Shown piece by piece: positions 17,085-49,035 of a stretch of DNA of 64,000 nucleotides. The position numbers were made by a program, and so were the translations under genes. Source of the DNA: Planctomycetota bacterium. GTDB lineage: Bacteria; Planctomycetota; B15-G4. The first letter of the stretch is position 1. The number at the start of each line of letters is the position of its first letter. Below the pieces are notes generated by a model, which saw only the letters and a program-made list of their open reading frames with translations, searched no databases and had not been told where the DNA came from. The stretch is from NCBI GenBank assembly GCA_029245865.1, contig JAQWOM010000043.1:76846-140845 (forward strand), in the 5' to 3' direction.

Positions 17085-20000
17085 TCAGAACGAAACGTTC
17101 CTTGTGACCAGTTCGACCTCATCGATCACAACGTCACCAAAGGTCACGGCCCCCGCCCCATGATCCGGGTCCACGAAATCGCCGTCTACGAGCAGTTGAA
17201 AGCGAAGGTATGTCTTTCCATCTGCAATAGATCGAGCAACCTCGGGCAAGCCCACGATGCTGTTAGGCAACTCGAGATCCGCCCCCACAAGGCTCACTGT
17301 CCCAGGGTCGACGGCCACTCGGATAGTCACATCGGGATCTGTCGCACGCAGGACATGGAGAGTCGTCCCATCAAACGCAACCGCTGAGGCGACAGAAGGG
17401 ACACCTCCGTCCACGATCCGCGCATAGCCGTGCACACCATCCAGCGAGATCCCCTTCGATCCGTCAGCGACACTGAACTGAATCAACATCGAAGAACCCG
17501 CTCCATAACGAGCCATCGGATCAACAGCCCAGGCTGTCTGAGTGGCTGCGTCATACGCCAGTCCCGTGAATTCAAAGTCGAGCGCTTCGGCGTCGCGTTG
17601 AACCCGGAACATGTCATCTACATGGAGCACCGTGAAGTCGGCGGTGAACGGGTCACCCGCCAGTGGATCAATCGTTGGGATCGAGACAACAAGGTCAGAC
17701 CGATTCGCTGCGATCAAGAGTCGATCGTCTTCTGTCATCGCGCCAGGCACAAAAGCCATGCCACCTTCCAACACGGACGGCAAGCGAATCGTGCGCTGGA
17801 ACAGCCCGGTCCCACGGTTAAACACGTGGACGAGGCCTGCGCCACGCTCAAGCAAATAGAGTTCGCTGGTGGCACCGCCCACGGCCATGGAAACAATGTC
17901 CAGTTGACTCCCTCCCACAGAGGGGATGTCTGGCAACGCGAGATCGGTACTGCCGGCCAGGTCATGAATGACAGACGTGCTCTCGCCGATGCTGTAGAGC
18001 AGGGCATTCTCAGTCGCATCAAACACGAAACCTGCGCGGCCGGACACGAGATCAGACGCCTCGTAGAAAGTCGGAGAAGCACCCGCGACATCCAACACGC
18101 CGTTGATATCCACCTTCGTCGGGTTGAAAACAAAGCGGAATGGAGGACGAAGGAACTCACCGGAACCGCCGGACTGCCCACTCTCCAGATAAGACCAGCT
18201 CAACCCGGTTTCTGCGACACCATCCTCATCAGTGTCGGCAGAGTAGTTCACGACAAGAGACTCGAACTCGGGGTTTGAGAGACCTGAGTTGTAGAACCGG
18301 CTTTCCGCCACGGAACGAGGCAAGCCAACAAGCCGCCCCACGTTCTCCGCGCTCAGCACGGGATCCGTCAGTCCGAAGAAACTGGATGGCAGCAAGCTAT
18401 CCGAGAAATTCTCGAACCGGATCCAACCGTCTCCACCAGTTCCCCCCAGACCAAGACCTTCAACGCTACCGCCCTCTCCGCCCTGTGCCTCAAGGAGCGC
18501 GCCGCCAAAGAGCTTGAACCCGCTGCCGCCGCGCAGAATGAGGCTGCCACCGGAACCACCCCCGCCACCGGCATAGAGAGCCACCGGAGCATCGATTTCT
18601 CCCCCATCGCCACCTCGCACCGACAGGGTTGCTGAACCACGCACTGTGATGAACTTCGCGCATTCGAGTTCGATACTGCCGCCTCCAGAACCACCGCCAG
18701 CTCCAGGGGTGAGCAGTGGCAGTGTGGATGCGGACGTTGCAGCGTTCAGCGTCCCAGTCACGGAGACACCGCTGCCACCACCTCCCGACCCACCGAGCGC
18801 ACTCGGGGGAACAAGCAGGAAGCTCACTTCAGAGCCCAAGCTCAGCCCAGGTCCTCCGAAACCACCCGGGCCCGAGGTCAGTCCCACGTCGACTTCGAAT
18901 GATTCGATCCGTTCCACGGTAAAGGTGGGATCGGTGAAATCCGTGATCTCGAATAACCAGCCATCGTTGGGAGCGTTTGGTACCAGAGAGGATCCAATCA
19001 AGGCCGTGGGATCCAGACTCGAGAGAGAAGCGCCCGAGGTCTGGGTCAGCCAGTCAAATTCTGTATCGCTCACCGCAACACCCGTACCGCGCACGGCGCC
19101 GAGCCCACCACCGCCTCCGGGTGACGCATCGAGTGCAACACCACCTAGGCCCTTTCCGCGCTGATCTTCCAGTGGGTCTGACAGAGGCCCACTCGAGCCG
19201 CCTGTGGAGCCACCAGAAATGCCGCCGCCACCGCCACCGCCACCGCCCGTCGTCATGATGGCCGGCGAGTCGTTGACGACCACATACGGCAAGGCGCCTA
19301 CGCCGCCACGTTGAAATCCACCCAAGTCTCCGCCGGGCACTCCCTGCAATCGACCGATCAAGTAAGAGTCACCGGCCGCAGCAATGGGCGCGTAGTTGGT
19401 GCCAATGTTGTCCGACACCTCAAGCATCGACTCTCCTTGAGAATCATCCACTTCGATGGAAGAGACACTCCCGACCACCGTCACTTCCTCAACGACGAAC
19501 ACGGGATTGTTCTCGTCAATAAGCTGATTCTTCGTACCGGCGTTCAACTGATCGGATGTCCCGAGCCCCATGTTGGGCTGCAGCAGGATTTCTCCGGCCA
19601 GCACCTGGGCATACAGATCCGGATCGCCTCCCAGCCCCAGCCCCGGGTCAGTCAGAATCGAAAGGTCAGTGTTCTCATCGGTGAGCAAGCTCGAGGTCAA
19701 GGAAACGCTGCGCCCTGTCGCACCGCGCATGCGTGGGTCCGCGGTTTCGAAAGCAGTGCCTGACATCGGCACGCTCGGCGAGACCAGATCCAACAACACA
19801 GTGTCTACCGAGCCATCTGCCGAGGTGTCCACCGCAAGAAGGACATCACCGCCATCGCCTCCAGCCCCCGCAGAGACAAGGCTTTGCCCGCCAAGACCGC
19901 CCTGTCCGAGATAGTCTGCATAGAGCGGGTCTGACGCATTCACTGGAACCGGCAAGATTTCACCCGGAACCCCGCGGGACAGCACCGAGCCGGCAATGTC

Positions 20001-21515
20001 TATATCCACCGTGGCCCGGATCACGATCGACGCAGGCACTCCGTCCAACGGGTGCCCTGGGCTTTGGACGATGAACTCATCGGGGTCGTTCATTCCGTCG
20101 TCGTCTCTGTCGCGCAAGACAGCGAGGGTCCAATCTGCCGGCAACTCAACGCGTCGAAATTCCCAGGCGCGCGGCTCGAACACGCCGGGACTCACCTCTT
20201 CGACAGTCGGAAGCAAAACAGCCTTCTCATCGAAGTCCACAACAGCCTCAAGCGGGACGTCCGTCGTTCCCAGAGCGACTGCCGTGCCCTCCGGATCCAA
20301 GATCAAGTTGCCGTCAAGACCGAGGCCTCCTGCCAAACCAGTTGTGAGCGCACCTTGTGGTGAGGCCCACTCCGCAGAACTCCCTGTAAGGCTCTCTTGA
20401 GCTGTGTTGTCAAAGGGCTCCGTGACAAGGTACGCCAGCGGATCAATGCCACTCACCGTGCTCACAGGCGCAGAGATCAACGGCGAGAAGTCCCCCGACA
20501 AGGAGAGCTTGGAATTGCCGGCCAGGTCTTCAACGCTCGCTTTGACTTCCACCAACAGAAAGGCGTCTGGTGGAAGCGCCACCAGGTCGGATCGCCACCG
20601 AGCGATGGTCAAATCGCCCTGCTGATGCAGGAAGCTCAATGTTGCAGGCGCGATAATGGGCACGAAATCACCATCCCCTGCGGTGTTGAGCAAGATCTGG
20701 ATGGAAGGACTCGAACCGTCCACAGAACTGAACACGGTCTGCGGAATCACAGCATCGTTGAAAATAAAGACGAGGTCGCGAAGCGGGGAGTACGGAACTG
20801 TGAGGACAGAGCCTTCGACCACCTCGGTGGGATTGCTGAAGAACAGCAAACTCTCTTCTGTCAGGTCGGCATCACTGTCCGCATCCACGATATCGCCGAA
20901 CGAAATCCCTGTGGTGTCGTCCACGAAGAATGCACGTACCGTTGGGTATCCCGGCTTTGTATCGAGTGCCTCTGTAGGCGTCCGGAAGAAGTACGACGTG
21001 TCCGCATTCGACATCGACTTCCCGCCCTCGGAAAGAATGCCATTACCCCCCGACGGATCACCAAAAGTGATCTCGTAGAGCGCATCTTCAACAAAACCAA
21101 AGGTGACATTCTGCGAGTTGAACTCAAGCAACGGCCGGATGAAGACGCGCTTACCTTGCACATCAAAGACCGCGGCCGCCTGCAGTCCAGCCGGGGCGCT
21201 CGACAGCCCCGCCGCGTCAGCGACAGTCACGAGCCTGAGGCTGCTGCTCATAACGCTCGCCGGATCCACACTCTTGTTGAAGATCAACTCAACCGATTGA
21301 TCCAGGCCTGCGAGCTTTGAGCCGTAGGGGCCCGCGATCACGCCAAAACCCTTCAGGCCGGAGGAGCTTGAACCGCCACCACCACCGCCACCGCCTCCGC
21401 CTCCTCCGCAAGCCGTCAGGAGGGCGATCACGAAGACCGGAAGAAGACGCAGAAAACGTGTCAGAGGTGCCATGGGTGAGGGCCTTGCCGAGTCTGGACG
21501 GGGGCGCGACATCAT
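17085..21515 (-). CDS. giant surface lipoprotein paralog C (lipobox LTAC followed by a G12 tract; glycine-rich beta-helix-like repeats; beta-propeller-like C-terminal region)
   Basis: Signal peptide MAPLTRFLRLLPVFVIALLTAC, then GGGGGGGGGGGGSSSSG. Internal G-rich blocks (TTGGGGGGGGGISGGSTGG; AGGGSGGGSIELE...GGDGGEIDAPVALYAGGGGGSGGSLILRGGSG). Start ambiguous between ATG at 21515 and 21473. Confidence 0.7.
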   Translation of the reverse strand: MMSRPRPDSARPSPMAPLTRFLRLLPVFVIALLTACGGGGGGGGGGGGSSSSGLKGFGVIAGPYGSKLAGLDQSVELIFNKSVDPASVMSSSLRLVTVADAAGLSSAPAGLQAAAVFDVQGKRVFIRPLLEFNSQNVTFGFVEDALYEITFGDPSGGNGILSEGGKSMSNADTSYFFRTPTEALDTKPGYPTVRAFFVDDTTGISFGDIVDADSDADLTEESLLFFSNPTEVVEGSVLTVPYSPLRDLVFIFNDAVIPQTVFSSVDGSSPSIQILLNTAGDGDFVPIIAPATLSFLHQQGDLTIARWRSDLVALPPDAFLLVEVKASVEDLAGNSKLSLSGDFSPLISAPVSTVSGIDPLAYLVTEPFDNTAQESLTGSSAEWASPQGALTTGLAGGLGLDGNLILDPEGTAVALGTTDVPLEAVVDFDEKAVLLPTVEEVSPGVFEPRAWEFRRVELPADWTLAVLRDRDDDGMNDPDEFIVQSPGHPLDGVPASIVIRATVDIDIAGSVLSRGVPGEILPVPVNASDPLYADYLGQGGLGGQSLVSAGAGGDGGDVLLAVDTSADGSVDTVLLDLVSPSVPMSGTAFETADPRMRGATGRSVSLTSSLLTDENTDLSILTDPGLGLGGDPDLYAQVLAGEILLQPNMGLGTSDQLNAGTKNQLIDENNPVFVVEEVTVVGSVSSIEVDDSQGESMLEVSDNIGTNYAPIAAAGDSYLIGRLQGVPGGDLGGFQRGGVGALPYVVVNDSPAIMTTGGGGGGGGGISGGSTGGSSGPLSDPLEDQRGKGLGGVALDASPGGGGGLGAVRGTGVAVSDTEFDWLTQTSGASLSSLDPTALIGSSLVPNAPNDGWLFEITDFTDPTFTVERIESFEVDVGLTSGPGGFGGPGLSLGSEVSFLLVPPSALGGSGGGGSGVSVTGTLNAATSASTLPLLTPGAGGGSGGGSIELECAKFITVRGSATLSVRGGDGGEIDAPVALYAGGGGGSGGSLILRGGSGFKLFGGALLEAQGGEGGSVEGLGLGGTGGDGWIRFENFSDSLLPSSFFGLTDPVLSAENVGRLVGLPRSVAESRFYNSGLSNPEFESLVVNYSADTDEDGVAETGLSWSYLESGQSGGSGEFLRPPFRFVFNPTKVDINGVLDVAGASPTFYEASDLVSGRAGFVFDATENALLYSIGESTSVIHDLAGSTDLALPDIPSVGGSQLDIVSMAVGGATSELYLLERGAGLVHVFNRGTGLFQRTIRLPSVLEGGMAFVPGAMTEDDRLLIAANRSDLVVSIPTIDPLAGDPFTADFTVLHVDDMFRVQRDAEALDFEFTGLAYDAATQTAWAVDPMARYGAGSSMLIQFSVADGSKGISLDGVHGYARIVDGGVPSVASAVAFDGTTLHVLRATDPDVTIRVAVDPGTVSLVGADLELPNSIVGLPEVARSIADGKTYLRFQLLVDGDFVDPDHGAGAVTFGDVVIDEVELVTRNVSF
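21372..21407 (-). repeat. (CCN)12 / Gly12 coding tract immediately after the lipobox Cys of giant paralog C
   Basis: Plus strand reads ccgccaccaccaccgccaccgcctccgcctcctcc; encodes 12 consecutive Gly. Confidence 0.85.
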
Positions 21516-21801
21516 GTATTGCACATTAAGGGGGATCAGTTCTGTCATGCCTGCCAAGCTCCGATTCTGAGGGCGGAGCCAACGGGTAGCTATAGGATGC
21601 CATCTCAAGTCGGACACGTCTCCGTGGGCACCGAGGACTTCCCTCAGTTCACTGCCATTTCCCCATCCTCGGGGGCCTCAGAGGACCTGCCGAGGCCATG
21701 GCTGCCCACCGTGGCCAGAAGGCCGTCCCTCAGGACATTCGACGTCTCCGGCGGCTGGATCTGATACACCGTTCCGATTCCCGCATCTCGGAGCCCCTTG
21801 A

Positions 21802-22587
21802 GTGCCCCCCTCTCCGCCCCCTCTGATCGACACCCACTGCCACCTGGCCTTTTCTGCCTTCGATGAGGACCGCTCGGAAGTGCTGAATCGGGCCCGGGAG
21901 GCCGGACTGGTGAGTTGCGTCGCTGTCGCCGTGGACGCCCAATCGGCCCGCCAGGCCCTTGCCCTGGCCAAGGCCGAGCCGGGGTTTGTGTATGCCACGG
22001 CGGGCATTCACCCCACCGAAGAGGCCGTGGCAGACCCGGCGGAGTTCCCCCTCGTGCGCGAGTTGCTGGAGTCGAAGCAGTTTGTCGCCGTTGGAGAAAC
22101 CGGGCTCGATGCGTATCACGAATGTGCCCCTCTCGACATCCAGCGCGATGCGCTGATTCAACATCTCAACCTGGCCCTTCAGTGCGACCTCCCGGTCGTG
22201 CTGCATTGCCGTGATGCATTTCCGGAACTTCTCGCAGCTCTTGAGAGCTACCGGGGAGAAGGACTGCGCGGCGTCCTTCACTGCTTCACTGGAGGACACT
22301 CAGAGCGCGAGGCGCTGCTCAGCCTCGGCCTGCACATCGGCGTCGGCGGTATTGCAACCTACAAACCGAACTCGGACTTGCGCGAGGTTGTTCGCGAAAT
22401 CCCCGACGAGCGACTGCTGATCGAAACAGATGCCCCTTGGCTTTCACCTGTACCAATGCGTGGCCGGCGCAACGAGCCAGCCTTCGTCGCTCATGTGGCA
22501 TCCAGGCTCTCCGAAGAACGCCAGCAGCCTCTCGCGACACTCGCGAAACAGTGCACCGCAAACGCCCAGGCACTGTTTCGCTTCTAA
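21802..22587 (+). CDS. tatD: TatD family metal-dependent hydrolase/DNase
   Basis: IDTHCHL..., GETGLD, HCR, HCFTG and ETDAPW blocks in TatD order. Confidence 0.8.
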   Translation: MPPSPPPLIDTHCHLAFSAFDEDRSEVLNRAREAGLVSCVAVAVDAQSARQALALAKAEPGFVYATAGIHPTEEAVADPAEFPLVRELLESKQFVAVGETGLDAYHECAPLDIQRDALIQHLNLALQCDLPVVLHCRDAFPELLAALESYRGEGLRGVLHCFTGGHSEREALLSLGLHIGVGGIATYKPNSDLREVVREIPDERLLIETDAPWLSPVPMRGRRNEPAFVAHVASRLSEERQQPLATLAKQCTANAQALFRF

Positions 22588-22618: not shown

Positions 22619-23506
22619 TCAAACAGCGAGCCATGTCATGGCTCTCCAGGCGGCCCCCGGCCAGGCGAGTTCCGTCAAAATCCCAACCGAGAGGAAGGGA
22701 CCAAAGGGCAAGCCAACCGGCCCGCCTCGCCCCGACATCCGGGCTGCGATCTTGAGAAAAATGCCTACCAGCGCTCCGACGAAGCACCCCACGAGGATTG
22801 CCTCAAGAACCAGAATGGGCCCGAGAATGGTTCCAGCAAAGGCCATCCATTTCACATCTCCAAGTCCCATGGCGTCTTGAACACCCGCGGCTTCGATCTG
22901 GCTTCTCAGCATGATGTTGCCCAGCCGCCCGACCAGCCACAGCGAGCCTCCGCCCGCAAGCATCCCCATCAGCGCCACGAGAAGGCTTGAGCCATGAACG
23001 AAGGGCTGTCCACCGATGGGTCCGACTTCGCCGGCAAGAAACAGGACGCCATCGACATGCAACTGGGGAATCAGCAAGGAGGCCAGGAGGCCCAGGGCGA
23101 TTCCGGGCAGCGTGATCACGTCCGGAATGATGAAGTGCTCGAGATCGATGGCACTCACGATGACGCAAAGTGACGCCATCACCCAACCAACCAGAAGAGG
23201 CGTCCAGGCAATCTGCTCTCCATGAATCTCCTGAGCCCAGAAGGCGACGAACAGCGCTCCGGTCAGCAGTTCCACCACAAGATAACGTGCAGAAATCTTG
23301 GTGGAACAATATCGACAGCGCCCCCGAAGGCAGAGCCACGAGAGCAGCGGAACATTGTCAAGCCAGGAGAGTTGCCTCTTGCACGTCGGGCACAAGGAAC
23401 GCGCCGGTTTCCAGAGACTCAAGCCCTCACGTGGCACACGATGAATAACAACGTTCGCAAAGCTCCCGACGGACAAGCCCAGGAACGAAACGAAACACCA
23501 CCCCAT
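22619..23506 (-). CDS. pilD: prepilin peptidase (A24 family, PilD/GspO-like), bifunctional leader peptidase/N-methyltransferase architecture
   Basis: N-terminal zinc-binding CPTC...CRYC tetracysteine, catalytic Asp in ...IDLEHFIIPD... and ...GLGDVKWMAF..., eight TM helices. Start at MGWCFVS. Confidence 0.8.
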   Translation of the reverse strand: MGWCFVSFLGLSVGSFANVVIHRVPREGLSLWKPARSLCPTCKRQLSWLDNVPLLSWLCLRGRCRYCSTKISARYLVVELLTGALFVAFWAQEIHGEQIAWTPLLVGWVMASLCVIVSAIDLEHFIIPDVITLPGIALGLLASLLIPQLHVDGVLFLAGEVGPIGGQPFVHGSSLLVALMGMLAGGGSLWLVGRLGNIMLRSQIEAAGVQDAMGLGDVKWMAFAGTILGPILVLEAILVGCFVGALVGIFLKIAARMSGRGGPVGLPFGPFLSVGILTELAWPGAAWRAMTWLAV

Positions 23507-23540
23507 CCAGCCCTCAGTCAGGCTCTGCATGCCGGAGATC

Positions 23541-24305
23541 CTATGATTTGGAAAGCGTCACGACGAGTGGTCCTTCGGGCGAACGACCATCGAGCCCCCG
23601 CAAACCGATTCTCTTCCAGATCAACTCGAGCGATCCGGATTCCGGGGGGACGCGGAGAAGGACCTCACTCCGAGAACCCTCCAACGACCAGCGGGTGTCT
23701 GGCAAAACGGGCTTGAGTTGAAGGCCTTCGGCGACAGGGAAGAGTGGGCAACTGGCAGGCGACACGGAGTTGGGCGCAACCACCCCCTCGAAAGAGAGTG
23801 CGATGACACCGTCATACGGAACAGGCCCCTGCTCATGGGGAGATCGCCCGTTGATGGACTTGAGTTCCAGCAGCCCGGCGTAGCTGAGCCTTGGCTCAAG
23901 AGTGACTTCCAGCCAGCGGGCTTCCGCCATGGAAGCACCTGAGTGAGACCGGAGAGCCTGAAGAGACGGCCAGCCAGCAAGCCTGATGAGAAGCTTTCCG
24001 GGAGGGTCTTGAACAAGCGCTTCATCGAGGAGGAGCGTCACCTCGAGTTGAGGACCGCTCAACTTCAACTGGTGGGCCAGGGGAGTTCCCTCATCGGTGA
24101 CCACTCGAACGGCGCCTTCGGTCACAAGTAACAGATCAAGATCTGCCGAAAAATCAATGACCACACTCTCATTCAGTGATCTCGATTCCGTCCAGCCGGT
24201 CACAAAGAGAGGCATCTCATCAACGGCACCACTCCCGCATTGAGGCGTCACGAGCGCCAGGGCACAGAACAAAATCAAACGGGGGAGCCGCCAGTCGAAA
24301 GACAT
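23541..24305 (-). CDS. hypothetical secreted protein, operon partner of giant lipoproteins and pilD
   Basis: Signal peptide MSFDWRLPRLILFCALALVTPQCGSGA; beta-rich body with no recognisable catalytic motif. Begins 26 nt after the giant B stop and ends 10 nt before pilD. Confidence 0.5.
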   Translation of the reverse strand: MSFDWRLPRLILFCALALVTPQCGSGAVDEMPLFVTGWTESRSLNESVVIDFSADLDLLLVTEGAVRVVTDEGTPLAHQLKLSGPQLEVTLLLDEALVQDPPGKLLIRLAGWPSLQALRSHSGASMAEARWLEVTLEPRLSYAGLLELKSINGRSPHEQGPVPYDGVIALSFEGVVAPNSVSPASCPLFPVAEGLQLKPVLPDTRWSLEGSRSEVLLRVPPESGSLELIWKRIGLRGLDGRSPEGPLVVTLSKS

Positions 24306-24331
24306 GCCGTCCAACAATCGAGGTCGAGTCG

Positions 24332-27300
24332 TCAGTAGCTTGCACGCATGCGAACGTATTCCGCTTGCGGCCGGAAGCTCTCGACCCCGAATGGGAATTC
24401 GGTCAAATTCACGCCGATGTCGAAACGAACTCGAAACCGCACGAGTGGATACCCCGACAGTTCGGTCAAGTCGGACAGCCACGCCGTAGTCGTCTCCTCA
24501 TCCGGGACACTTGATCCGGGACGCACAGCATAAGCACCCTGAAAGCGAACGGACACGGCGGCGTTATCAGAAACTGCGTCGAGTTGCAGAATGCTCTGAT
24601 CTGGTGCATTCACGCGGATATCGTTGTACGGGGCTGTGTTGCCAGGTGACGAAGGGAACAAGCTCGGCGACCCTGTGCTGATCGAGTTTTTCACGTAGTG
24701 GGCAGGCTTGCCCACGACAGCACCGCTCAGAATCATCCGTCCATCGCTTCCTGCTGGGGTCACCTCAGGTGCCGAAGCGTGATGAGTCCCCAGAAAAGCC
24801 TCAAAGAACGGTGGAGTCCGTCCATCCTCATTGCGTGCACGTAAACCCGCTCCCTGGAAGTCCAGCCAGACCGAGGTCCCCACGCTCACTGTCCCGAGGG
24901 GGGGCGGCGTCTTGCTCGGGTGAATCACGGGCAAGCGCGTGACCAGATTGTCCGGATCGAAGACATCTTTACCGTCCAACTCCACTGTCGGAAGCGTTCC
25001 ATCGGGCTCCACCATACGGACGCCAAAGGGAATCGTTTCACCGGCGTGAGTCGTCCCCGGCGTTTTTGGAAATTTGGGATCGGAGGCGGGGTTGTTGATT
25101 TCCTTGAACGTCACCGGGTTGTAGCCGTTGTAGGTCTTCATGACCTTCTCCGGCTCAGGCTCACGCACGAAGGCGACCCCAGGGAATTCCGGCATCTCCA
25201 TCATCGCCGTGTCAAACCAGGTCTGACCAGAGTCTGGGGGATATTCATTGGTCAGCGACGGGAACGACCCATTGGGTCCGCCCTCACTCGGGATGAGTGG
25301 TGGGTAGGCCCCATTCAAGACGTAATAACGATCGAAAAAATTGGTCCCGGGTTGCAGAACGAATGAGCGGTGATGAAGCATGTCGATGTAGCGCAGGTCG
25401 TCCGACAGTTCGTCATCAGGAAAATCGGGGTGATCACCCTGCTTCGCGTTGAGGTCGCCCGTCCAGGTTCCGAGTTTCAGAATGGAGCGCTGCTTTGCGA
25501 AGAGGAAAGCGCCCGGTTGAATCTCGGGGAACCCCGTGCCATCCCCCATCTGCAACTGGATCAGGCCGGCGCCACCCTGCCCTCCGTCACTCCGCGTGTG
25601 ATCAAAAGTAAAAGACTGGAAGTCGATGGTGTTGGCGGGATTTGTCCGAGAGTCACGCCCCATGCCTCCCGACACATCCAGAGAGGCCCCCTGCTTGCCA
25701 TCAACGTCGACATAGGACGCGCTCAGGTGACCTTCGTCTGCCTCGATGCGAATGTTCCCCGCTGCCTGAAGGACGATTGCACCGCCACTGCCGCCACCGC
25801 CACCTCCGCTGAAGGCACTCGTCTGAACCACTTCTCCTCCGCCACCGTGGCCGCCGCTGGCATCGATGTGACCGAGGCGCCCGATGACGATGTCACCAAA
25901 CGAGCGAATCTGGACGGAACCGCCCCCGCCACCACCTCCCCCACCCTTTGCATCCAGGCTAGAGGGAGCCAGAAAGACGCCCACCAGGAGCTTGGGGAAG
26001 AAGGGCGGGGCAAGCGCCGGTGGTACGGGAGCACCGAGGGCATTCAACGACCAACCTGCGTGGCGCATGCTGTCAACGCGCGAGCCACCACCCCCACCAC
26101 CTTGTCCACCAATCAGCACGGGCAGTTCACCACCCGCACCAATGAAATCGTTGGACGTGTCGCCATCGCGGAAAACCGGATCGCCGGCATCCGCACCAGG
26201 CTTGATGCGAGAAATACTGGTTGGATCGGTGTAATCCTCAGACGCCCCCGGCTTGAACGTCATATAGACGCACTGCAGCGGTGTCTTCGGCAACTGCCCC
26301 GAATAGAAGTTCTCGTCATTGCCGTAGACGGCGTCGCTCCGCTTGTTGTTCGTAGGGCATTTCGTAAAGGGGAACCAACTGCCGTTGCTCTGAATCAGAT
26401 AGGCCCCACTTCCTTCACGCGAGGGCTGCCCCACGTGATAGAAACTTCCGCCACCTCCACCAGGTGCCCGATGGTGTTCGGTGTTATCGCTTGGCGGAAT
26501 CTTGGGGATAAACGCGGCCGTAGGATCAAAGCCCACTGTGCTTAACCCCCCATGCCCTCCAATCTGCTGAACCGTCAGCTTTCCGCCAGGAGTGAGAACG
26601 GGGCCGAAGCCACGCTCACCTGTTTCCGGAGTGACGTACTGGTCGAGGGAGGCGGGTCCGTTGGGGTCGAACAACGTCGGCTGGCTGTCACCGCCTCGGC
26701 CACCACCGGGGCCACTTGGCCCTCCACGCACCGCGACAAAACCCGAATCGAAAGAATCGTCACTGAGACCGTCCGTCCCTTTGATCGTCAGGACCCCGTT
26801 GATTTCGACCTTGCGCGTCGCCGTGATCACCAACGGCTTGCTACCCCGAGCGATCACTTGCGCGCCCTCAGGGATGATGAAATCGCGAAATGCGAACTGA
26901 CCGCCATAGATGGTGATGTTCTCTGTGATGCCCGGAGTCGCACCGCTCGGCAATGGGAAAGACTGCGCATCTGTATCCAGGAAGACCGTGTTGAATGTGG
27001 TCAATTCCAGCGACAGATCCCTTTCACCCTTCGTGGAACTTGAACGCGTGTAAGCAAACAGCTCTTCGAAATCGGGCGATCCCCCAGGAAGGAAATCGCC
27101 GAGGTCTACTGTCTCGCTGACACCGACAGAGGCTCGCAAGCCGGGCACAATGGACGAGCCCACAAAGGAGCCCGACCACTCGGCAAGCGGGCTCGTGCCA
27201 ATCGGCGATTCATCCTCGTACTTCCGCTCCTCAAACTCTTCGAGGAATGTGTCGTCAATATAGGCTTCTGGCCCGGCCAGGGGGATCGCTGTGTGCAAAC

Positions 27301-29335
27301 TGAGCAGTCGCGTGGCTCCCAGGGGCGTCACCGTATCTTCGGGGTCTTCATTCACCGCGTTCGTACCGAAGAGTGACATCAGCGTGTTGCGCTGCATCAC
27401 ATCCAACTCGGCATCGATCGGAAGGACGCCCACGGGCCTCAGCTCCAAGACAGCGCCCTCTTCGGCGTTGGACTGAACCACCACATCGACATCGAAGTCC
27501 ATGAAGCCGACGGTCAACGCCCGAGCCGGGCTCAGGTTCTCTGGAAAGCTTGTAAGCGGGTGCCCGAAAGCCGCCACGTCTGAGACAACTGTGCCAAGAA
27601 CGCCCAGGTCGGGGTCGATGACCTGGATGGAATCGAGTGTTCGGTTGAGCGCCAAGATCCGATTCTCGCCGACAAACTGGAGATCGACGTATCGCCCGGA
27701 GAGTTCCAGCGCGACATCGGTTTCCAACCCACTGAAAAGGCCGTCGCCGTCCTCAAATTCCCCGTCAAGTTCGAAGTCAATCGGCGCCAGACGTAAGATC
27801 GAGGTTTGATCAGGATTGCCATTTCGAATGGCGAGGGCATACAGCTTCCCCGAGGGAGCCTGCGCGAGATCGAGGATCTCACCCGCAGATTCCGGTTGCG
27901 GAGCACTCAGAAACCCCGTCTCTCCATCACCCGTGGCCACGCTCACCAGAATCGGGGCCTGGAGGTCTTCCTCGACAGGGTTCGGCCGGCGTCGGATGAC
28001 GGTTGGCAACAGTTCATGAAGACGCCGAGTGCTCCTGTCGTACGCCACAAGTCGGCCGTCCAGAAGCGTCACAAGCCCCACCAGATCTTCGAGCCCTGTC
28101 GTGACAGGTCCTGGCTCACCGCCCTCGTCAGGCGCAACAGCCATCCGTGCGTGAAACGGATCTCCGAGGACAGGGTCCGCCACGGAGAGCAGGTCAGGCC
28201 CTCCATCCACTTTGAGAATCGACCACAGCAGCGACGCGTCCAGACCACACGCCATGCTTCCGATCGTGCCTGTCAGTTCGGGATCAGGGTCGGGCAGTGC
28301 GCCCGAAGTCTCGTTATGAAGAAAGATGTTTGCGCCTGAAGCGTCCGGATCCACGCCCTCGTCAAGCGCCGAGAGAGCCTCGAAGGCCGGATGCACGCCG
28401 AACGTGTCTGCTGGCACGGCGTGCGACACAAGCAGTCCAGTTCCCCGAGCCCGCAAGAAGAACGTCGGATCAAGGAGACCGTCAGCATTGAGATCTAAAC
28501 CCGCCAGGTTGTCACTTGTCGGCACCAAAGCACGGTCGTAGGTCAGTGCGATCTGCTCGGCGCCAAGGGGAAACAGCGATGTCCCCTCGAACTCGAGCGA
28601 GGTCGTCGAAAAGGTCTGCGGGAAGAAGTCCGTCGTGCCATCCGGGGGGACGGCGCCTGCGAGGGCCGGTTTCAATCCATCAGCACCGCTCGTGGGATAA
28701 TAGGCTGCCGAGTTCGAGGTGGTGCCAAACTTCACCGTGCCAGGCACACCTTTCAGATCAGGGTGCAGATTCTGGATACGCGTACTCGGCAAGGTGGAGA
28801 CGGCCACCGTGTAAACCGACGCTGGCAACAAGCCCGGCACGGATTCTGCGGGCGCAGAAAGAACCGGTGAAAGCGGGGCCGTCGGCACGAACGGCCGAAA
28901 CTCCACCGTATTGCCAACGCGCACATAAGTACCCTTGGCAGTGATGACCGGGGTGGTGCCATTGGCCCCCGACTCCGGCCCCACCTCAGCGAGCGTGGTG
29001 TAAACGGGCAGGGAGGCGCTGTTAAACGGCCCCGAAGGTGGACCGCTGAACCGAAACACCAGCGTCAGATTGAGTGGGCCACCAGCCGTTGCTGGCGTCG
29101 AACTCAGATCTTCCATGGGCGGCTGCGTGAACTCCGGATCTGAACCTATCCGGAACGAAAACCCCAGAAAATTGACCAGGTTCGACGTGCCGCCGCCGCC
29201 ACCGCCGCCACCGCCACCACCGCCGCCGCCACACGCCGCGAGTGACAGACAGACAACTCCTAGAGCGAGGCCTCCGAAGACCCGGGCGGTCGATCGCGTC
29301 ACCACACCGGCTCGGCCGTCAATCCAGCTTTTCAT
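24332..29335 (-). CDS. giant surface lipoprotein paralog B (lipobox LAAC followed by a G14 tract; beta-propeller-like and glycine-rich beta-helix-like modules)
   Basis: Signal peptide MKSWIDGRAGVVTRSTARVFGGLALGVVCLSLAAC, then GGGGGGGGGGGGGGTSN. Internal poly-G (AKGGGGGGGGGSVQIRSFGD...SGGGGGGSGGAIVLQAAGNIRIE). Start overlaps the giant A stop by ~16 nt, suggesting translational coupling. Confidence 0.7.
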   Translation of the reverse strand: MKSWIDGRAGVVTRSTARVFGGLALGVVCLSLAACGGGGGGGGGGGGGGTSNLVNFLGFSFRIGSDPEFTQPPMEDLSSTPATAGGPLNLTLVFRFSGPPSGPFNSASLPVYTTLAEVGPESGANGTTPVITAKGTYVRVGNTVEFRPFVPTAPLSPVLSAPAESVPGLLPASVYTVAVSTLPSTRIQNLHPDLKGVPGTVKFGTTSNSAAYYPTSGADGLKPALAGAVPPDGTTDFFPQTFSTTSLEFEGTSLFPLGAEQIALTYDRALVPTSDNLAGLDLNADGLLDPTFFLRARGTGLLVSHAVPADTFGVHPAFEALSALDEGVDPDASGANIFLHNETSGALPDPDPELTGTIGSMACGLDASLLWSILKVDGGPDLLSVADPVLGDPFHARMAVAPDEGGEPGPVTTGLEDLVGLVTLLDGRLVAYDRSTRRLHELLPTVIRRRPNPVEEDLQAPILVSVATGDGETGFLSAPQPESAGEILDLAQAPSGKLYALAIRNGNPDQTSILRLAPIDFELDGEFEDGDGLFSGLETDVALELSGRYVDLQFVGENRILALNRTLDSIQVIDPDLGVLGTVVSDVAAFGHPLTSFPENLSPARALTVGFMDFDVDVVVQSNAEEGAVLELRPVGVLPIDAELDVMQRNTLMSLFGTNAVNEDPEDTVTPLGATRLLSLHTAIPLAGPEAYIDDTFLEEFEERKYEDESPIGTSPLAEWSGSFVGSSIVPGLRASVGVSETVDLGDFLPGGSPDFEELFAYTRSSSTKGERDLSLELTTFNTVFLDTDAQSFPLPSGATPGITENITIYGGQFAFRDFIIPEGAQVIARGSKPLVITATRKVEINGVLTIKGTDGLSDDSFDSGFVAVRGGPSGPGGGRGGDSQPTLFDPNGPASLDQYVTPETGERGFGPVLTPGGKLTVQQIGGHGGLSTVGFDPTAAFIPKIPPSDNTEHHRAPGGGGGSFYHVGQPSREGSGAYLIQSNGSWFPFTKCPTNNKRSDAVYGNDENFYSGQLPKTPLQCVYMTFKPGASEDYTDPTSISRIKPGADAGDPVFRDGDTSNDFIGAGGELPVLIGGQGGGGGGSRVDSMRHAGWSLNALGAPVPPALAPPFFPKLLVGVFLAPSSLDAKGGGGGGGGGSVQIRSFGDIVIGRLGHIDASGGHGGGGEVVQTSAFSGGGGGGSGGAIVLQAAGNIRIEADEGHLSASYVDVDGKQGASLDVSGGMGRDSRTNPANTIDFQSFTFDHTRSDGGQGGAGLIQLQMGDGTGFPEIQPGAFLFAKQRSILKLGTWTGDLNAKQGDHPDFPDDELSDDLRYIDMLHHRSFVLQPGTNFFDRYYVLNGAYPPLIPSEGGPNGSFPSLTNEYPPDSGQTWFDTAMMEMPEFPGVAFVREPEPEKVMKTYNGYNPVTFKEINNPASDPKFPKTPGTTHAGETIPFGVRMVEPDGTLPTVELDGKDVFDPDNLVTRLPVIHPSKTPPPLGTVSVGTSVWLDFQGAGLRARNEDGRTPPFFEAFLGTHHASAPEVTPAGSDGRMILSGAVVGKPAHYVKNSISTGSPSLFPSSPGNTAPYNDIRVNAPDQSILQLDAVSDNAAVSVRFQGAYAVRPGSSVPDEETTTAWLSDLTELSGYPLVRFRVRFDIGVNLTEFPFGVESFRPQAEYVRMRASY
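29189..29230 (-). repeat. (CCN)14 / Gly14 coding tract after the lipobox Cys of giant paralog B
   Basis: Plus strand gccgccgccaccgccgccaccgccaccaccgccgccgcc; encodes 14 consecutive Gly. Confidence 0.85.
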
Positions 29336-32300
29336 AAGGGATGACGATCGAGTTGATGATCGGCGGTTGCGTGGAGTTGGGCGCGACACCGAAGCTCGCC
29401 CGGAACTTGATGTAGGTGTACTCATCATCCGGGCCACTGAGATCGACGGTGAAGTTGGGCTCATCGGAACGGACGTAACCCGACTCCAGCGTGGGCGCCG
29501 CGAAGTTCAACTGGCGGCCAGCACGGAAATCAACGGCCAGCGACGCAGCAGGATCGACGTCGGCAACTGGCGGATGAATGATGGGCCGCTGGTAGCGAGC
29601 CGTGGTTCCATCCACTTCGATCGTGGGTGATTCGATCACCGAAACGCGCTTCTTGTACTTCCACATCATGTAGTAGCGGCTGTTGTCACCAAAACGCGAG
29701 GGAGGAGCCGTCATGCCTGGCTCGTTCGAGATGACGGTGGGCGCGGTGTTCGAGAACCCCTCATTGAAAGGAATATCACACGGGTCAGCACCCGGCCCGA
29801 TGGCCCCTGGTGGAGGTCCGTACCCGAAGAAGAAGGTCGGCGGCTGCCCGGTCGGCCCCGGAAACGACGTGGGGTCCGGAAGCGGATTCATGAGCATGCC
29901 GTTGGCGTAGTAGTAGTTCGTCTCTGGCAAGACGTTGCCCCCGGGCAAGGTCGTGATGCAGCAGAGGTCGTCGTCATAGACGCCGTTCAGCGGACCGAAC
30001 GACTCGGGGCCTGTGTAGCTCGGTGTGGGTTGAATGGCGATCGTGTCGCCTCCGGCACAGTCCGGAGATTCGGGAATCTTCGGTGGCGTGATGTAGTCAA
30101 TGGGCAATTGGGTCGGCATGCCGTTGTGAAGACCCTGAGGTGCCACGGCCGAGGTGTAGGAACCAGGCTTGAGCAGAGGGCCACCCTCGCCCGCATGCAA
30201 GTAGTTGAGCTGCTTGGGGCAGGTCGCAATCCCAATCGACCAGTTGGGTGCGTTGTAGGCTGCCGGGTGCTGACCCTGACTCCAGATACGGAAGCGAGGC
30301 AACACGGAGGTCAGGATGCCGGGCGAGAACCGATACACATTGCCAGGAGGAGGCGATTCGTTGGGACCGATGGAATACTCGATGAGCATCGGGAAGCGGC
30401 TGTCGTACGGGAAAGAGAAGACATCCTCTTTGCCGAAAAACGGGTCGAGTCCCGCATTGAAGTCCGGATAGTCCAGATAGAGGTTGAACGCACCAGGCGT
30501 TGACCCTGCGTTCGTCGGCTTGAACAGGTTGGTCGGACTCAGCGTGTAGGCCGTTCCGCGCTGAACAACGGTTGTCGTCTCTGGCTGGGGGTTCTTCTCC
30601 AGTTGTGCCTCCAGGTTGTTGGTCAGGCCTTGTCCCTCTCCAATGCAGCAGTTGTCGAAATGCTCAAGACGGTTGCAGTCAAAGTTCCTGTCCAGGCCTG
30701 AATCATCGTCGGCAGGAATTCCGTTGGTCTGATTCGTGTTGGGCCCGCGGCCTCTGTTCGCACCACCGAGACCGACGAGGAGTTCGAAATCGTCCAGCAC
30801 CGTGGGAAACACGACGTCATCGAACGGGGACCAGGCCAGACCCACCAGATCGAGAGTCACGCCGGCGAAAGACGTCTGGGACGGCGAGGCATCACCTGCA
30901 CGGTAGACATGCTGGAAGCGCGCACCGAAACCCGAGTTGATCGGCGTTCCTGCGCCAAAGCCCAGCGACACCAGCAAATCTTCCCCGTTCGGCGACGCCC
31001 AGGCCGAAGGTTTGGGGGGATTGTTGTTGTCGATCAGGTGCTGAATGACAGCTGCCGGCGCACCGGTGAGCCAACCGGGAATGTTCAGGCCGACCTCCGT
31101 CACCTGCGGGCCGTAGATGAAACGCCGCTCTGGAATGCCGTTGTCGTCTGAATCGATCGGAGGGTAATCGTTGTATTCGACCCCAGACGTCACGCTGTCA
31201 TGCACGCTGCCCTCTGGGTAAGTGATGTTTGCTGTCAGCGGCTGCCCAAGGAAGCGGTGCACAATCACGCCGTAGTCGGGATCGCTGCTCGGCAAGGTGT
31301 CAAAGGTCATCGAGTTGTCGATCGCCGGCGGGAAGGCCCCTCGCGAGGGGCTCGTCGGCACGAGAAAGAAGTTCTCGGTGTCCCCCTGGTCGAGAAGGGC
31401 TGCGGGAAGGCCGAGCCCTCGACCACCCACATTGATGCAGCCCGTGATGCCCAAGGTGTTCAGGTCATCCAGTTGAGCCAGCACTTCGGGAGTTGCCGTG
31501 GCCGCGATCTCGTCAATCGTGGACTGAGGAGGAAGCGTACGCACCACGAGACGGAGTTGGCTGGCGGTACCACCAAAGCCAACGAAACGCGAGTTGGATG
31601 TTTCAACCTGATCTTCAAGGTAAGGCTGGAACTCCATCACGGACCCATTGTCCAGGGCCACCGTCCGCCCCAGTCGCATGTCCCTGAATGCGCTATCGGT
31701 CGGAGACAAAGAACCGTCCGCGACATAAAAAGACTCGTAAGGATCGAAGCTCGCGACGTCCATGCCCTCGCTGAACTGGAGACGCAACGACGTGCGAGGC
31801 GGAACAGCAAGGAAAGTCGACGTCGCTGCATTCCAGTGATTCAGACGCTCCTCTCCGAACTCATCGAACATGCGTACGAAATACCGCAGATCGCTGTTGA
31901 ACTGATCCTGAGGATCGTTCGGATCACGCGGGACGCTCTCTGGGTCGACCGTGATCGCCGCAAGGCTGACCGGATCGCTGGGAAAAGGAGGCGGAATGGG
32001 CTCGAAGAATTCGCTTCGTGACACGGTGTAGGCATCACCCACATTCGTGTCCACAGCAAGAGACTGCCCCGGCGCCAGCCTGAAGACGGCGTCGCCCCCG
32101 GAATTGAAGTTCGACTCCAGGACGTACTGGGTGGTGCCCTCGAAGGATTCCACTTCCATCAATCCGTTGGCCCATTCGCCCTCACCGTCATTCGCGCTGG
32201 TGTTCGGAAGCTGAGCCAGCGAGTCATCGCGGAGCTCAAACTGTCCACCCACAAAGTCGAGAGAAGACAGTGAACTCGACAGGACCACACGACGAATGAT

Positions 32301-33152
32301 GCGAGGAGCTGTGAGATCGGGCAGGAATCCGTTGAACGACACCGCGCCGTCATCTGTCTGCAACACGATCGCGTCGAGTGCGCTGTTCCCCGTGTTGACC
32401 GGAAGTGGGCGCACCAGACTCCCAAGCTTGTCATCTCGTGTCTGAATGGGCAGGCCCGAGACGGACTCCAACGCGCCACCTCCGACACTTCCGCTCACGA
32501 CGGCTCTCAGGAATCCCGTGGAATCCTCCACGGCCGTTCCCGTCTGGTCAAAAACCAGCGGGCTGGCTTCAAACCCAAGACTCTCGCTCGTGATGCCGAC
32601 GATCACCACCTGGTTTCCCACCACGAACGCGCGAGACGGAATGACGGCCCCAGACTTACGTTGCAATTGAACCGTGCTCAGAGGACCGAGCCGATTCGTT
32701 TCCCCCTCGGCCGTCGGCGACAGCAAAGCGAGACTCGCCTCCGACACCGGCATGGAGAACTCAAGAATCAAAGCGGCATTGCGAGGCAGCAATGGAATCT
32801 GCGGCGTGAGCGGATCCAAGATCTGAGCCAAGCTGAGCGACGCGAGAGAGGAAAGCGAGGCTCCTTCGGTGAGCACCTTGGGAAAGCCCGGCAAGACAAC
32901 ACCGGTGAGCGGGTCGATCTCGTAGAGCGAGGCTGGGTTCACCAAGTTCAAGAGTTCGCCCTGCAGATCCAAGATGGGCCGCGCAAAGGCTGCGCCCGTC
33001 AGGAAGAAGTCGACATCCGGATCCAGAGGTGTCGAGCCTCCAGTGCTTCCACCACCACCACCACCACCCCCGCCACCACCACCACCACCACATGCCGCCA
33101 GCAGCCCAAACATGGCCGCGACAAGGGCTCGACTGAGCAGGGACTGTGACAT
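29319..33152 (-). CDS. giant surface lipoprotein paralog A (lipobox LAAC followed by a G15 tract)
   Basis: ATG at 33152 with GGAG 8 nt upstream. Signal peptide MSQSLLSRALVAAMFGLLAAC, then GGGGGGGGGGGGGGGSTGGS. About 1277 aa, rich in G/D/P/S/T. Shares the C-terminal motif RPIIHP with paralog B (RLPVIHP). Confidence 0.7.
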   Translation of the reverse strand: MSQSLLSRALVAAMFGLLAACGGGGGGGGGGGGGGSTGGSTPLDPDVDFFLTGAAFARPILDLQGELLNLVNPASLYEIDPLTGVVLPGFPKVLTEGASLSSLASLSLAQILDPLTPQIPLLPRNAALILEFSMPVSEASLALLSPTAEGETNRLGPLSTVQLQRKSGAVIPSRAFVVGNQVVIVGITSESLGFEASPLVFDQTGTAVEDSTGFLRAVVSGSVGGGALESVSGLPIQTRDDKLGSLVRPLPVNTGNSALDAIVLQTDDGAVSFNGFLPDLTAPRIIRRVVLSSSLSSLDFVGGQFELRDDSLAQLPNTSANDGEGEWANGLMEVESFEGTTQYVLESNFNSGGDAVFRLAPGQSLAVDTNVGDAYTVSRSEFFEPIPPPFPSDPVSLAAITVDPESVPRDPNDPQDQFNSDLRYFVRMFDEFGEERLNHWNAATSTFLAVPPRTSLRLQFSEGMDVASFDPYESFYVADGSLSPTDSAFRDMRLGRTVALDNGSVMEFQPYLEDQVETSNSRFVGFGGTASQLRLVVRTLPPQSTIDEIAATATPEVLAQLDDLNTLGITGCINVGGRGLGLPAALLDQGDTENFFLVPTSPSRGAFPPAIDNSMTFDTLPSSDPDYGVIVHRFLGQPLTANITYPEGSVHDSVTSGVEYNDYPPIDSDDNGIPERRFIYGPQVTEVGLNIPGWLTGAPAAVIQHLIDNNNPPKPSAWASPNGEDLLVSLGFGAGTPINSGFGARFQHVYRAGDASPSQTSFAGVTLDLVGLAWSPFDDVVFPTVLDDFELLVGLGGANRGRGPNTNQTNGIPADDDSGLDRNFDCNRLEHFDNCCIGEGQGLTNNLEAQLEKNPQPETTTVVQRGTAYTLSPTNLFKPTNAGSTPGAFNLYLDYPDFNAGLDPFFGKEDVFSFPYDSRFPMLIEYSIGPNESPPPGNVYRFSPGILTSVLPRFRIWSQGQHPAAYNAPNWSIGIATCPKQLNYLHAGEGGPLLKPGSYTSAVAPQGLHNGMPTQLPIDYITPPKIPESPDCAGGDTIAIQPTPSYTGPESFGPLNGVYDDDLCCITTLPGGNVLPETNYYYANGMLMNPLPDPTSFPGPTGQPPTFFFGYGPPPGAIGPGADPCDIPFNEGFSNTAPTVISNEPGMTAPPSRFGDNSRYYMMWKYKKRVSVIESPTIEVDGTTARYQRPIIHPPVADVDPAASLAVDFRAGRQLNFAAPTLESGYVRSDEPNFTVDLSGPDDEYTYIKFRASFGVAPNSTQPPIINSIVIPYEKLD
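33045..33089 (-). repeat. (CCN)15 / Gly15 coding tract after the lipobox Cys of giant paralog A
   Basis: Plus strand ccaccaccaccaccacccccgccaccaccaccaccaccac; encodes 15 consecutive Gly. Confidence 0.85.
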
Positions 33153-47548: not shown

Positions 47549-47674
47549 GTGCAGGAGTCTATCAGCCGGCTCGACGTGAAGGAGGTTCTCCGCAGGAACC
47601 TTCGCGATCAGACTCCCCCGGCGGATTCCGAAAGGGTGCCCTCAAAGTGACAGGCACCCGCAGGAGCGCGCCAA

Positions 47675-47771
47675 CGGAGGGGATCGGCAACACAATGAAG
47701 ACTGCGCTTAGGGCTGCTCCCGTCAGGGCCTGACCCGGTTCACGCGCTTCACTCGCCACCGACCCCCACCG
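47675..47771 (-). ncRNA. ffs: candidate signal recognition particle RNA (4.5S/ffs)
   Basis: Minus-strand transcript contains GGUCAGG-CCC-UGAC-GGG-AGCAGCC. The flanks match the conserved SRP domain IV (GGUCAGG...AGCAGCC) with a compensated 3-bp stem. Terminal helix GGUGGGGGUCGG / CCGAUCCCCUCC. Sits immediately upstream of dnaX, as in many bacteria. The apical tetraloop UGAC is not the usual GNRA. Confidence 0.45.
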
Positions 47772-47876
47772 TCGACGCGCAGCCATCTCGGCTGAGACTC
47801 TTGGAAGACGCTCCAAGAACCCGGTCACGACAACATCATCCACATCCAAGAGGAACCATTGACTGACGCCTCATGG

Positions 47877-47964
47877 TGGCGGAGAGGGTGGGATTCGAAC
47901 CCACGGATCCTCGCGGATCAACGGTTTTCGAGACCGCCACAATCGACCACTCTGTCACCTCTCC
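47877..47964 (-). tRNA. tRNA-Ser (anticodon CGA)
   Basis: Revcomp GGAGAGGTGACAGAGTGGTCGATTGTGGCGGTCTCGAAAACCGTTGATCCGCGAGGATCCGTGGGTTCGAATCCCACCCTCTCCGCCA. Long variable arm, anticodon loop CTCGAAA, encoded CCA. Confidence 0.8.
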
Positions 47965-48056
47965 TGGGCAAAACCATGCTGCGATGCAACGGCGTGCGCG
48001 TCGACTTCCGTCACGGGTTCCTGCAAGTACCACTCATTCTTCCGCGCACGAAAGAA

Positions 48057-48148: not shown

Positions 48149-48235
48149 CTGACCCGGTCTCTGGCTCCCTGTCCGCAAGCACGCGCTCCAGGAAGCAGAA
48201 ACCGATCGGACATTGTAGGAACCGGCTCCCACGGC

Positions 48236-48958: not shown

Positions 48959-49035
<77 letters not shown>

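Follow-up and report, generated by a model that had tools for sequence, protein, structure and literature searches.

The gene for the giant putative lipoprotein C and its orthologs

The window analysed here is a stretch of 64,000 nucleotides from a Planctomycetota bacterium (assembly GCA_029245865.1, contig JAQWOM010000043.1, positions 76,846 to 140,845), and it carries on its minus strand the gene for a giant putative lipoprotein of 1462 amino acids, here called C (17085..21473 including the stop codon). Two further genes for giant putative lipoproteins, A and B, lie nearby on the same strand. C is a real, strongly conserved gene, and on sequence grounds its product is a member of an undescribed superfamily defined by a Gly-rich domain of approximately 190 amino acids. 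All features of C reported below are located on the minus strand.

C lies inside a minus-strand open reading frame (ORF) of 1510 codons that spans 17085..21617. The initial annotation let the gene start at 21515, and an in-frame ATG is indeed present there, but the ATG at 21473, 42 nucleotides downstream, fits better and yields MAPLTRFLRLLPVFVIALLTAC. Since the orthologs agree on a start approximately 22 residues ahead of the lipobox Cys and P0001, the closest ortholog, is also 1462 amino acids long, we set the start of C at 21473, which is likely the true one.

We found 34 full-length orthologs with 40–88% identity, all annotated as hypothetical and all from Planctomycetota metagenome-assembled genomes (MAGs). 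Fifteen C loci are present in species-representative genomes, 12 of them in MAGs titled Planctomycetota or Phycisphaerales, one in a MAG of an unclassified "bacterium" and one in a MAG labelled Pseudohongiellaceae. The full-length orthologs together with a ratio of nonsynonymous to synonymous substitutions (dN/dS) of 0.086 rule out that C is a pseudogene or a spurious ORF. No second copy was present among the matches to C, and in the related MAGs examined C is a single-copy gene at a fixed chromosomal position.

Predicted lipoprotein signal and polyglycine tether

The N-terminus of C reads as a lipoprotein signal peptide, MAPLTRFLRLLPVFVIALLTA, ending in a lipobox Cys (21408..21473). It has a positively charged n-region, a hydrophobic h-region and, near residue 20, a lipobox of the type [LVI][ASTVI][GAS]C (MAPLTRFLRLLPVFVIALL-T-A-C). 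From this Sec/signal peptidase II-type signal we infer that C is lipid-anchored via the lipobox Cys, a modification that is predicted. The Cys is directly followed by a flexible Gly12-SSSS-G tether (21357..21407), found in the scan for polyglycine runs and in the translation, which reads ...VFVIALLTAC, then exactly twelve Gly and then SSSS, just as described in the initial annotation. In the AlphaFold2 model the tether is disordered, with a predicted local distance difference test score (pLDDT) below 50. The Gly run is encoded by a mixture of GGA, GGC and GGT codons and is thus not a slippery homopolymer tract; selection acts on it at the level of the protein. Phase variation by slipped-strand mispairing at this tract was considered and is ruled out by the mixed codons.

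The Cys and the Gly-rich tail are retained in 30 of the 35 aligned members of the C family, and at least two of the other five are truncated at the N-terminus; the tether of C orthologs contains three to 13 Gly. The same arrangement is conserved in all three giant families, with 3–17 Gly and family medians of 8–10, and a Cys-polyGly N-terminus is found in exactly three ORFs of the window, namely C, B and A (21357-21407, 29180-29230 and 33030-33089). A carries it despite having nothing else in common with B and only one immunoglobulin (Ig)-like domain in common with C. In the window and the loci L001–L025, four or more Gly follow the Cys in 16 of the 19 lipobox ORFs whose part beyond the Cys is 700 amino acids or longer and in none of the 18 smaller lipobox candidates, among them the small lipoprotein encoded next to B; this comparison is based on a small sample and the smaller set includes spurious ORFs. 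The Cys-polyGly N-terminus may be a sorting or spacing signal of giant proteins.

Domain architecture of C

The AlphaFold2 models were made with a 35-sequence alignment for residues 37–760 and 700–1476 and reached a mean pLDDT of 79.0 and 84.3, respectively. The tether is followed by an Ig-like domain of the Big_5/SbsA type (residues ~56–181, 20973..21350), which is the module common to A, and a second beta-sandwich (Ig-like) domain (residues ~193–356, 20448..20939). The Ig-like beta-sandwich fold resembles the S-layer SbsA/SbsC domains. The Big_5 family (PF13205, gathering threshold 23.6 bits) has no match at E <= 1 in the C protein of the window; it is found below the threshold in five of six C orthologs (12.7–19.3 bits) and above it in distant relatives.

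A linker modelled with low confidence leads to a domain that is common to B (residues 362–519, 19959..20432), recognised with hhalign and carrying an EPFD...W motif. It contains an acidic loop resembling EF-hand or TSP3 loops, DRDDDGMNDPDE (20079..20114), in which D469, D473 and D477 are invariant in the C family; a weak EF-hand_1 match was found in the ortholog P0005. The three invariant Asp suggest a putative Ca2+ site in this shared domain. The central conserved region (residues 520–894, 18834..19958), seen in the invariant columns, the polyglycine scan and the model, contains the first Gly-rich stretches, including a Gly9 run (19221..19247), the invariant motifs LQPN.G.G and IDENHP, and a small inserted beta domain at residues ~809–904. 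The region is also matched by relatives of approximately 1100 amino acids that have no propeller.

Next comes the Gly-rich domain (residues 895–1085, 18261..18833), followed by beta strands at residues ~1082–1133 and a beta-propeller with five blades (residues ~1154–1400, 17316..18056). A propeller-like region near the C-terminus had already been proposed, and the structural model bears this out. The protein ends with a group of strands seen in the model (residues ~1420–1476, 17088..17258), in which R1438, F1439 and N1473 are invariant in the C family and the last residue, F1476, is conserved in at least 90% of the members. By eye, this C-terminus resembles that of the relative P0174. The last residue is aromatic in both proteins, Phe1476 in C (17088-17090) and Tyr1667 in B (24335-24337, minus strand, invariant). 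Such a conserved final aromatic residue recalls a C-terminal aromatic signal; it is not kept by all shorter superfamily members.

A propeller at the end of a spacer-like stalk could be catalytic, with or without the solenoid-like Gly-rich domain, and C would then be a surface-anchored enzyme that modifies polysaccharides or peptides and uses the Ig-like domains as spacers, as seen in many glycan-degrading lipoproteins of planctomycetes and Bacteroidota. We consider this unlikely. No catalytic family of Pfam or NCBIfam was found at E <= 1 in C or in six orthologs, and the sequence identity to every structural match of the C-terminal model is only 6–15%. Furthermore, the propeller is missing from the shorter superfamily relatives that occupy the same genomic slot, so that the ancestral family function must lie outside it.

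The Gly-rich domain and its wider family

The Gly-rich domain of C consists of four Gly motifs in repeat units of three strands and approximately 41–44 amino acids, followed by NVG...S.FY. The block quoted in the initial annotation, AGGGSGGGSIELE...GGDGGEIDAPVALYAGGGGGSGGSLILRGGSGFKLFGG, lies inside it at residues ~938–1005, in a numbering that counts from the start at 21515, as does the range ~938–1040 used for the whole block. An alignment of 17 sequences of the superfamily shows the same succession: GGxGGGGxG; GxGGGxGGG with strands; GGGGSGGS(I/L)xLQ; GGxGGxGx(I/V)RxE; and then NVG...S.(F/W)Y. The model assigns the domain a pLDDT of mostly 85–93 and shows triads of short strands split by Gly-rich coil (residues 248–266, 292–310 and 332–337 of the 700–1476 model), and the internal repetition is also visible when the region is aligned to itself with an offset. 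A beta-helix is plausible for the modelled block; its repeat unit corresponds to about twice the usual beta-helix rung.

The domain has no match in Pfam or NCBIfam, and profile searches of the PDB with the whole C family and with the Gly-rich domain returned only artefacts such as GGGGS linkers and a succinate dehydrogenase flavoprotein. A weak match to 1lnz and a GTP1_OBG match at E 0.05 raised the idea of an Obg fold with polyglycine-II helices, which was rejected (hhalign score 15.6 versus 11.8 +/- 2.3 for shuffled alignments). Full-text searches of the literature for this protein family retrieved nothing.

The extent of the superfamily became visible in an exhaustive search with a profile hidden Markov model (HMM) of C residues 290–1476 against 1.84 billion representative sequences. 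At E <= 1e-3 it retrieved 469 proteins, of which 116 reached <= 1e-10 and 40 <= 1e-30. Beyond the orthologs, the matches fall into proteins of ~1100–1250 amino acids whose match covers the whole profile as far as the propeller (E 1e-98 to 1e-58), numerous proteins of ~700–900 amino acids that match with the Gly-rich domain only (E about 1e-10 to 1e-20), and unrelated propeller-repeat proteins. All named superfamily members are from Planctomycetota and are annotated as "hypothetical" or "Ig-like domain-containing". The sampled members have lipoboxes, for example ...FASC-GGGGGGGG in P0174 (1134 amino acids) and ...LGAC-SGGSSSGS in P0208 (864 amino acids), and C shares further superfamily traits with them, namely one or more N-terminal Ig-like domains after the lipobox and an E.F..D...W domain ahead of the Gly-rich domain. 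The only Pfam families in the distant relatives are an N-terminal Big_5 and, in one region, Beta_helix.

Relationship of the three giant proteins

B (24332..29335, minus strand, 1667 amino acids, Gly-rich domain at 25466..25978) and A (29319..33152, minus strand, 1277 amino acids) belong to families with 55 and about 50 full-length homologs, respectively. BLASTP comparisons among A, B and C gave nothing significant, none of the three matches a Pfam family at E <= 1, and the only NCBIfam match is that of B to the N-terminal model of AgmC (22.8 bits). We compared the family alignments of the three giants as profiles with hhalign, using column-shuffled alignments as controls. The Gly-rich blocks of C (938–1040) and B (1131–1267) align with a probability of 97.2 and an E of 2.9e-11, the score of 72.5 being far above that of the shuffled alignments (13.1 +/- 2.8, maximum 21.5, n=100). 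The similarity thus rests on the order of the columns and not on composition, and the homology of the two blocks that the initial annotation had proposed is substantiated. A collinear upstream domain is also shared (C 362–519 and B 695–857, probability 90.9, score 47 versus 14.8 +/- 2.9). The N-terminal Ig-like domain connects C to A (C 72–198 and A 125–264, probability 97.1, score 49.7 versus 13.1 +/- 2.7).

A full-length match of C and B with 95.5% probability was driven by the signal peptide and the polyglycine run; once these were removed, the N-terminal Ig-like match dropped to 24.1 against a shuffle maximum of 22.0 and is not significant. Over their last ~140 residues, the three giants show no significant similarity. 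An HMM of the Gly-rich domain built from distant relatives matched all 35 proteins of the C family and all 57 of the B family (among the best matches listed, E from ~1e-24 for B to 1e-41 for C). In the A family it matched nothing except the polyglycine tether, showing that A has no Gly-rich domain. By profile comparison, two modules are common to B and C, which makes them distant paralogs. The claim of a family of three paralogs thus stands for B and C; A is related to C by a single Ig-like domain and the N-terminus, and none of the three are similar by BLASTP.

The initial annotation had gone further and seen in the three genes the duplication and diversification of a surface protein class. 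If A, B and C were recent tandem paralogs of such a class, possibly under diversifying selection, their common Cys-polyGly N-terminus and the two modules shared by B and C would find a simple explanation, and members of these families can indeed multiply: four superfamily members of ~860 amino acids stand in tandem in the slot of C in another lineage, and some genomes have a second copy of the B family. This explanation is nevertheless very improbable and largely refuted at this locus. Apart from the failure of BLASTP and the missing Gly-rich domain in A, the three giants form three distinct ortholog groups that occur in the same order in all related MAGs.

The substitution pattern points in the same direction. 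Compared with the 88%-identical ortholog (L018) over the 1462 codons of C, all 100-codon windows have a dN/dS of 0.03–0.17, the lowest value being found in the Gly-rich block (0.03); no window exceeds 0.17. The value for B (0.082) is close to the overall value for C, and the neighbouring genes for a DHH family protein, phosphoglucomutase and a metallophosphoesterase have 0.067, 0.055 and 0.011. The prepilin peptidase (0.135) and the small lipoprotein (0.157), the fastest of the block, evolve more quickly. Purifying selection on C thus matches in strength that on the housekeeping genes next to it, and with separate orthologous families in fixed synteny the scenario of duplication and diversification is not upheld here.

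A second B family copy was seen twice, as P0039 and P0044 on one 5.29-Mb contig and as P0069 and P0074 (DHS20C15_11450 and DHS20C15_22280).

Gene neighbourhood

C is transcribed divergently from tatD (21802..22587, plus strand; Pfam TatD_DNase, E 3e-77), as the initial annotation stated, with a spacer of 328 bp, and the position and orientation of tatD are kept in related loci. Beyond it follow, on the minus strand, genes for a prepilin peptidase (PilD/A24, 22619..23530; Pfam A24_N_bact at E 2e-32 and Peptidase_A24) and for a small putative lipoprotein of ~254 amino acids without polyglycine (23541..24305), and then B and A. The signal peptide of the small protein ends with ...LVTPQC; its real start is probably the ATG at 24305, since the listed ORF start, a GTG at 24482, overlaps B. 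Pfam finds nothing in the window protein and faint Big_5 (Ig-like) matches in its orthologs. In the string A, B, small lipoprotein, prepilin peptidase (22619-33152, minus strand) the stop of A and the start of B overlap by 17 nucleotides, followed by gaps of 26 and 10 nucleotides. The four genes are spaced like a single operon, and the string is kept in all related loci and in the deeper loci L022 and L024.

In every related locus long enough to be judged, down to that of the 40%-identity ortholog, we found the same gene order: A, B, small lipoprotein, prepilin peptidase, in some cases EF-G, tatD on the opposite strand, C, amidohydrolase, DHH, metallophosphoesterase, proline dehydrogenase and phosphoglucomutase. 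The remaining genes of the window belong to the core chromosome (Obg, RNase E/G, sigma-54, DnaX, PrkA, signal recognition particle (SRP) RNA and tRNAs). Identical order in related MAGs and these core-chromosome surroundings argue for an ancestral arrangement and not for a local duplication burst.

Records labelled 'Pseudohongiellaceae bacterium', a gammaproteobacterial family (locus L008; proteins P0060, P0138 and P0146), hold the block of B, small lipoprotein, PilD, TatD, C, amidohydrolase and DHH that is known from Planctomycetota MAGs. The MAG behind them was probably mis-binned or mislabelled.

Deeper lineages have shorter relatives of C in the same genomic slot, showing that the locus is ancient. 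In L019 (1-9637) the order is PilD, EF-G, PilT-like, PilB-like, PilC, a 220-amino-acid protein, an N_methyl pilin, HEAT, P0174, DHH and metallophosphoesterase; the stretch from PilD to the C homolog in this position thus includes a PilT-like ATPase, a PilB-like ATPase with MshEN, PilC (T2SSF) and an N_methyl pilin. L024 and L025 have B', small lipoprotein, PilD, EF-G, PilT-like, TatD, a 347-amino-acid protein, P0308, DHH and metallophosphoesterase, and in L024 (3196-7657) the PilT-like ATPase is the only filament gene left in this interval. L022 reads RNase E/G, L21, L27, Obg, a 335-amino-acid protein, PanK, GTPase, A', B', small lipoprotein, PilD, EF-G and PilT-like. In L020 (4749-16463; GCA_964483245.1) four superfamily members of 860, 859, 864 and 864 amino acids stand in tandem between TatD and DHH, a true tandem duplication in the slot of C in another lineage. 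Type IV filament genes are, or formerly were, intermingled with these lipoprotein genes, and the clade of the window has lost them from the interval between PilD and C.

These arrangements raise the possibility that a type IV filament system, either a type IV pilus or type II secretion, has C as its dedicated accessory or substrate and exports it or assembles it at the surface along with A, B and the small lipoprotein. The operon-like string with PilD is conserved in the clade of the window and in deeper lineages, the C homolog of L019 lies directly downstream of the filament genes from PilD to the pilin, and L024 keeps the PilT-like ATPase in that position. In addition, type II secretion systems reportedly deliver lipoproteins to the cell surface (PMC12802150, PMC12439988). 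Nevertheless, we regard such a dedicated role as rather doubtful. The block also contains the unrelated genes for EF-G, TatD, DHH, proline dehydrogenase and phosphoglucomutase and may be slowly rearranging synteny, and the clade of the window keeps C although pilT, pilB, pilC and the pilin gene are gone from the slot. C is moreover a separate transcription unit beyond the divergent tatD, and the most distant homolog of A has no PilD nearby.

Elsewhere in the window, a 637-amino-acid ORF (8772-10685, plus strand) has no Pfam match and adjoins phosphoglucomutase in L001, L002 and L018 (643–644 and 637 amino acids), a conserved unknown of this clade. The Rfam scan of the window found only tRNAs and the SRP RNA, far from the C locus; the small SRP RNA (47672-47770), two tRNA-Ser and one tRNA-Arg are located on the minus strand just downstream of dnaX (47672-49035).

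A possible role in the cell envelope

The reading that we favour, giving it somewhat better than even chances, is that C serves in the cell envelope as a lipid-tethered binder or scaffold without enzymatic activity, and that it is a core component rather than a variable adhesin. C would hang from a membrane by its lipidated Cys; the Gly at position +2 might direct it to the outer membrane, a guess by analogy with the +2 rule of Escherichia coli. The polyglycine leash and the Ig-like domains could then form a stalk, and the Gly-rich domain and the propeller a non-catalytic head that binds or scaffolds a partner in the envelope or on the surface, either a protein or a glycan. C probably shares its setting in the envelope with A, B and the small lipoprotein, as suggested by the operon-like string with a prepilin peptidase and by the neighbouring pilT, pilB, pilC and pilin genes in deeper lineages. 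The housekeeping-like constraint on C and its fixed single copy argue for a core role in the envelope and against a variable adhesin.

Several points weigh against this reading. The membrane in which C would be anchored and its topology are guesses by analogy. The link to type IV filaments is drawn from the order of genes in a block where the housekeeping genes for Obg, PanK, EF-G and DHH are also found, and the presence of such unrelated genes weakens any functional conclusion from synteny. Finally, the fold searches with the C-terminal model gave matches for the propeller only and none for the Gly-rich domain.

It is tempting to go one step further. The Gly-rich module could be a new fold or domain family, either a wide solenoid or a structure with polyglycine-II helices, that marks giant Cys-polyGly lipoproteins specific to Planctomycetota. 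These proteins might combine with A, the small lipoprotein and the neighbouring type IV filament genes into an unrecognised ancestral envelope or surface apparatus, in which the polyglycine N-terminus would specifically signal the sorting or spacing of the giants. We consider this scenario a long shot.

The envelope of Planctomycetota is unusual and poorly understood, and the large surface proteins of these bacteria mostly lack annotation. A domain of ~190 amino acids that has no counterpart in Pfam, NCBIfam or the PDB and recurs in many unannotated envelope proteins merits a new domain family entry. The three giants have fixed and ancient positions in a core chromosomal block and evolve as slowly as housekeeping genes, suggesting a basic role in the envelope over niche adhesion. 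The type IV pilus genes in the block of deeper lineages provide a testable lead, and C and its relatives are candidates for envelope and surface proteomics and for structural work.

Comparison with known systems

The proteins most similar to C are the unannotated Planctomycetota proteins with the Gly-rich domain, such as P0174, P0208, P0202 (an 'Ig-like domain-containing protein', MEZ5989808.1) and B. Like C, they have the lipobox, Ig-like domains of the Big_5 type, the E.F..D...W domain and the Gly-rich domain; a Gly/Ser run often comes after the lipobox, as in P0174 and P0208, and the relatives occupy the same slot beside TatD, amidohydrolase, DHH and metallophosphoesterase. C is the longest form and adds the five-bladed propeller and the inserted small beta domain. 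These relatives have no described function and thus offer no mechanism for C.

Gly-rich beta-solenoid adhesins, among them the chlamydial Pmp proteins, autotransporter passengers with GGA(I/L/V) motifs and the RTX beta-rolls, are extracytoplasmic proteins whose Gly motifs resemble those of B and C. In the latter, the motifs SGGAIVLQ (B) and SGGSLILR (C) recur, each before short beta strands. C differs from the adhesins in having a predicted N-terminal lipid anchor and a repeat unit of ~41–44 amino acids instead of 9 or ~20–25. Its C-terminal model shows a propeller and beta strands and not the beta-barrel translocator of Pmp proteins and autotransporters. The Pfam families Chlam_PMP, autotransporter and RTX (HemolysinCabind, with tandem GGxGxDxUx nonapeptides) had no match in C at E <= 1.

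Some likeness was also seen to AgmC, an adventurous gliding motility protein of Myxococcus (NF047640). The last ~60–90 positions of this model align weakly with the Gly-rich repeats of B and of some superfamily members, at about 20–23 bits and E 3.7e-5 to 3e-4 (B: 22.8 bits over model positions 340–399), whereas the model, which covers an N-terminal domain of 412 positions, has a cut-off of 275 bits. The likeness of B is thus local, confined to Gly-rich sequence and far below the cut-off; C and three of its orthologs did not match the model.

The S-layer proteins with SbsA/Big_5 domains (SbsC, PDB 4uj6, 2ra1; PF13205) have an Ig-like fold similar to that of C, but C has no S-layer anchoring or self-assembly domains and would be lipid-anchored instead. 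The modelled propeller has the same five-bladed fold as YjiK (SdiA-regulated) and the glutaminyl cyclases (PDB 3qqz, 3mbr, 3nok), at an identity of only 13–15% and with no Pfam match at E <= 1, and in C it is located close to the C-terminus of a giant putative lipoprotein. Large lipoproteins that combine several domains and have no known function are widespread, and the finding is not one that changes the field. In its general design, with Ig-like and propeller modules in one giant lipoprotein, C is of a familiar kind; the Gly-rich domain and the planctomycete superfamily built around it are the new part.

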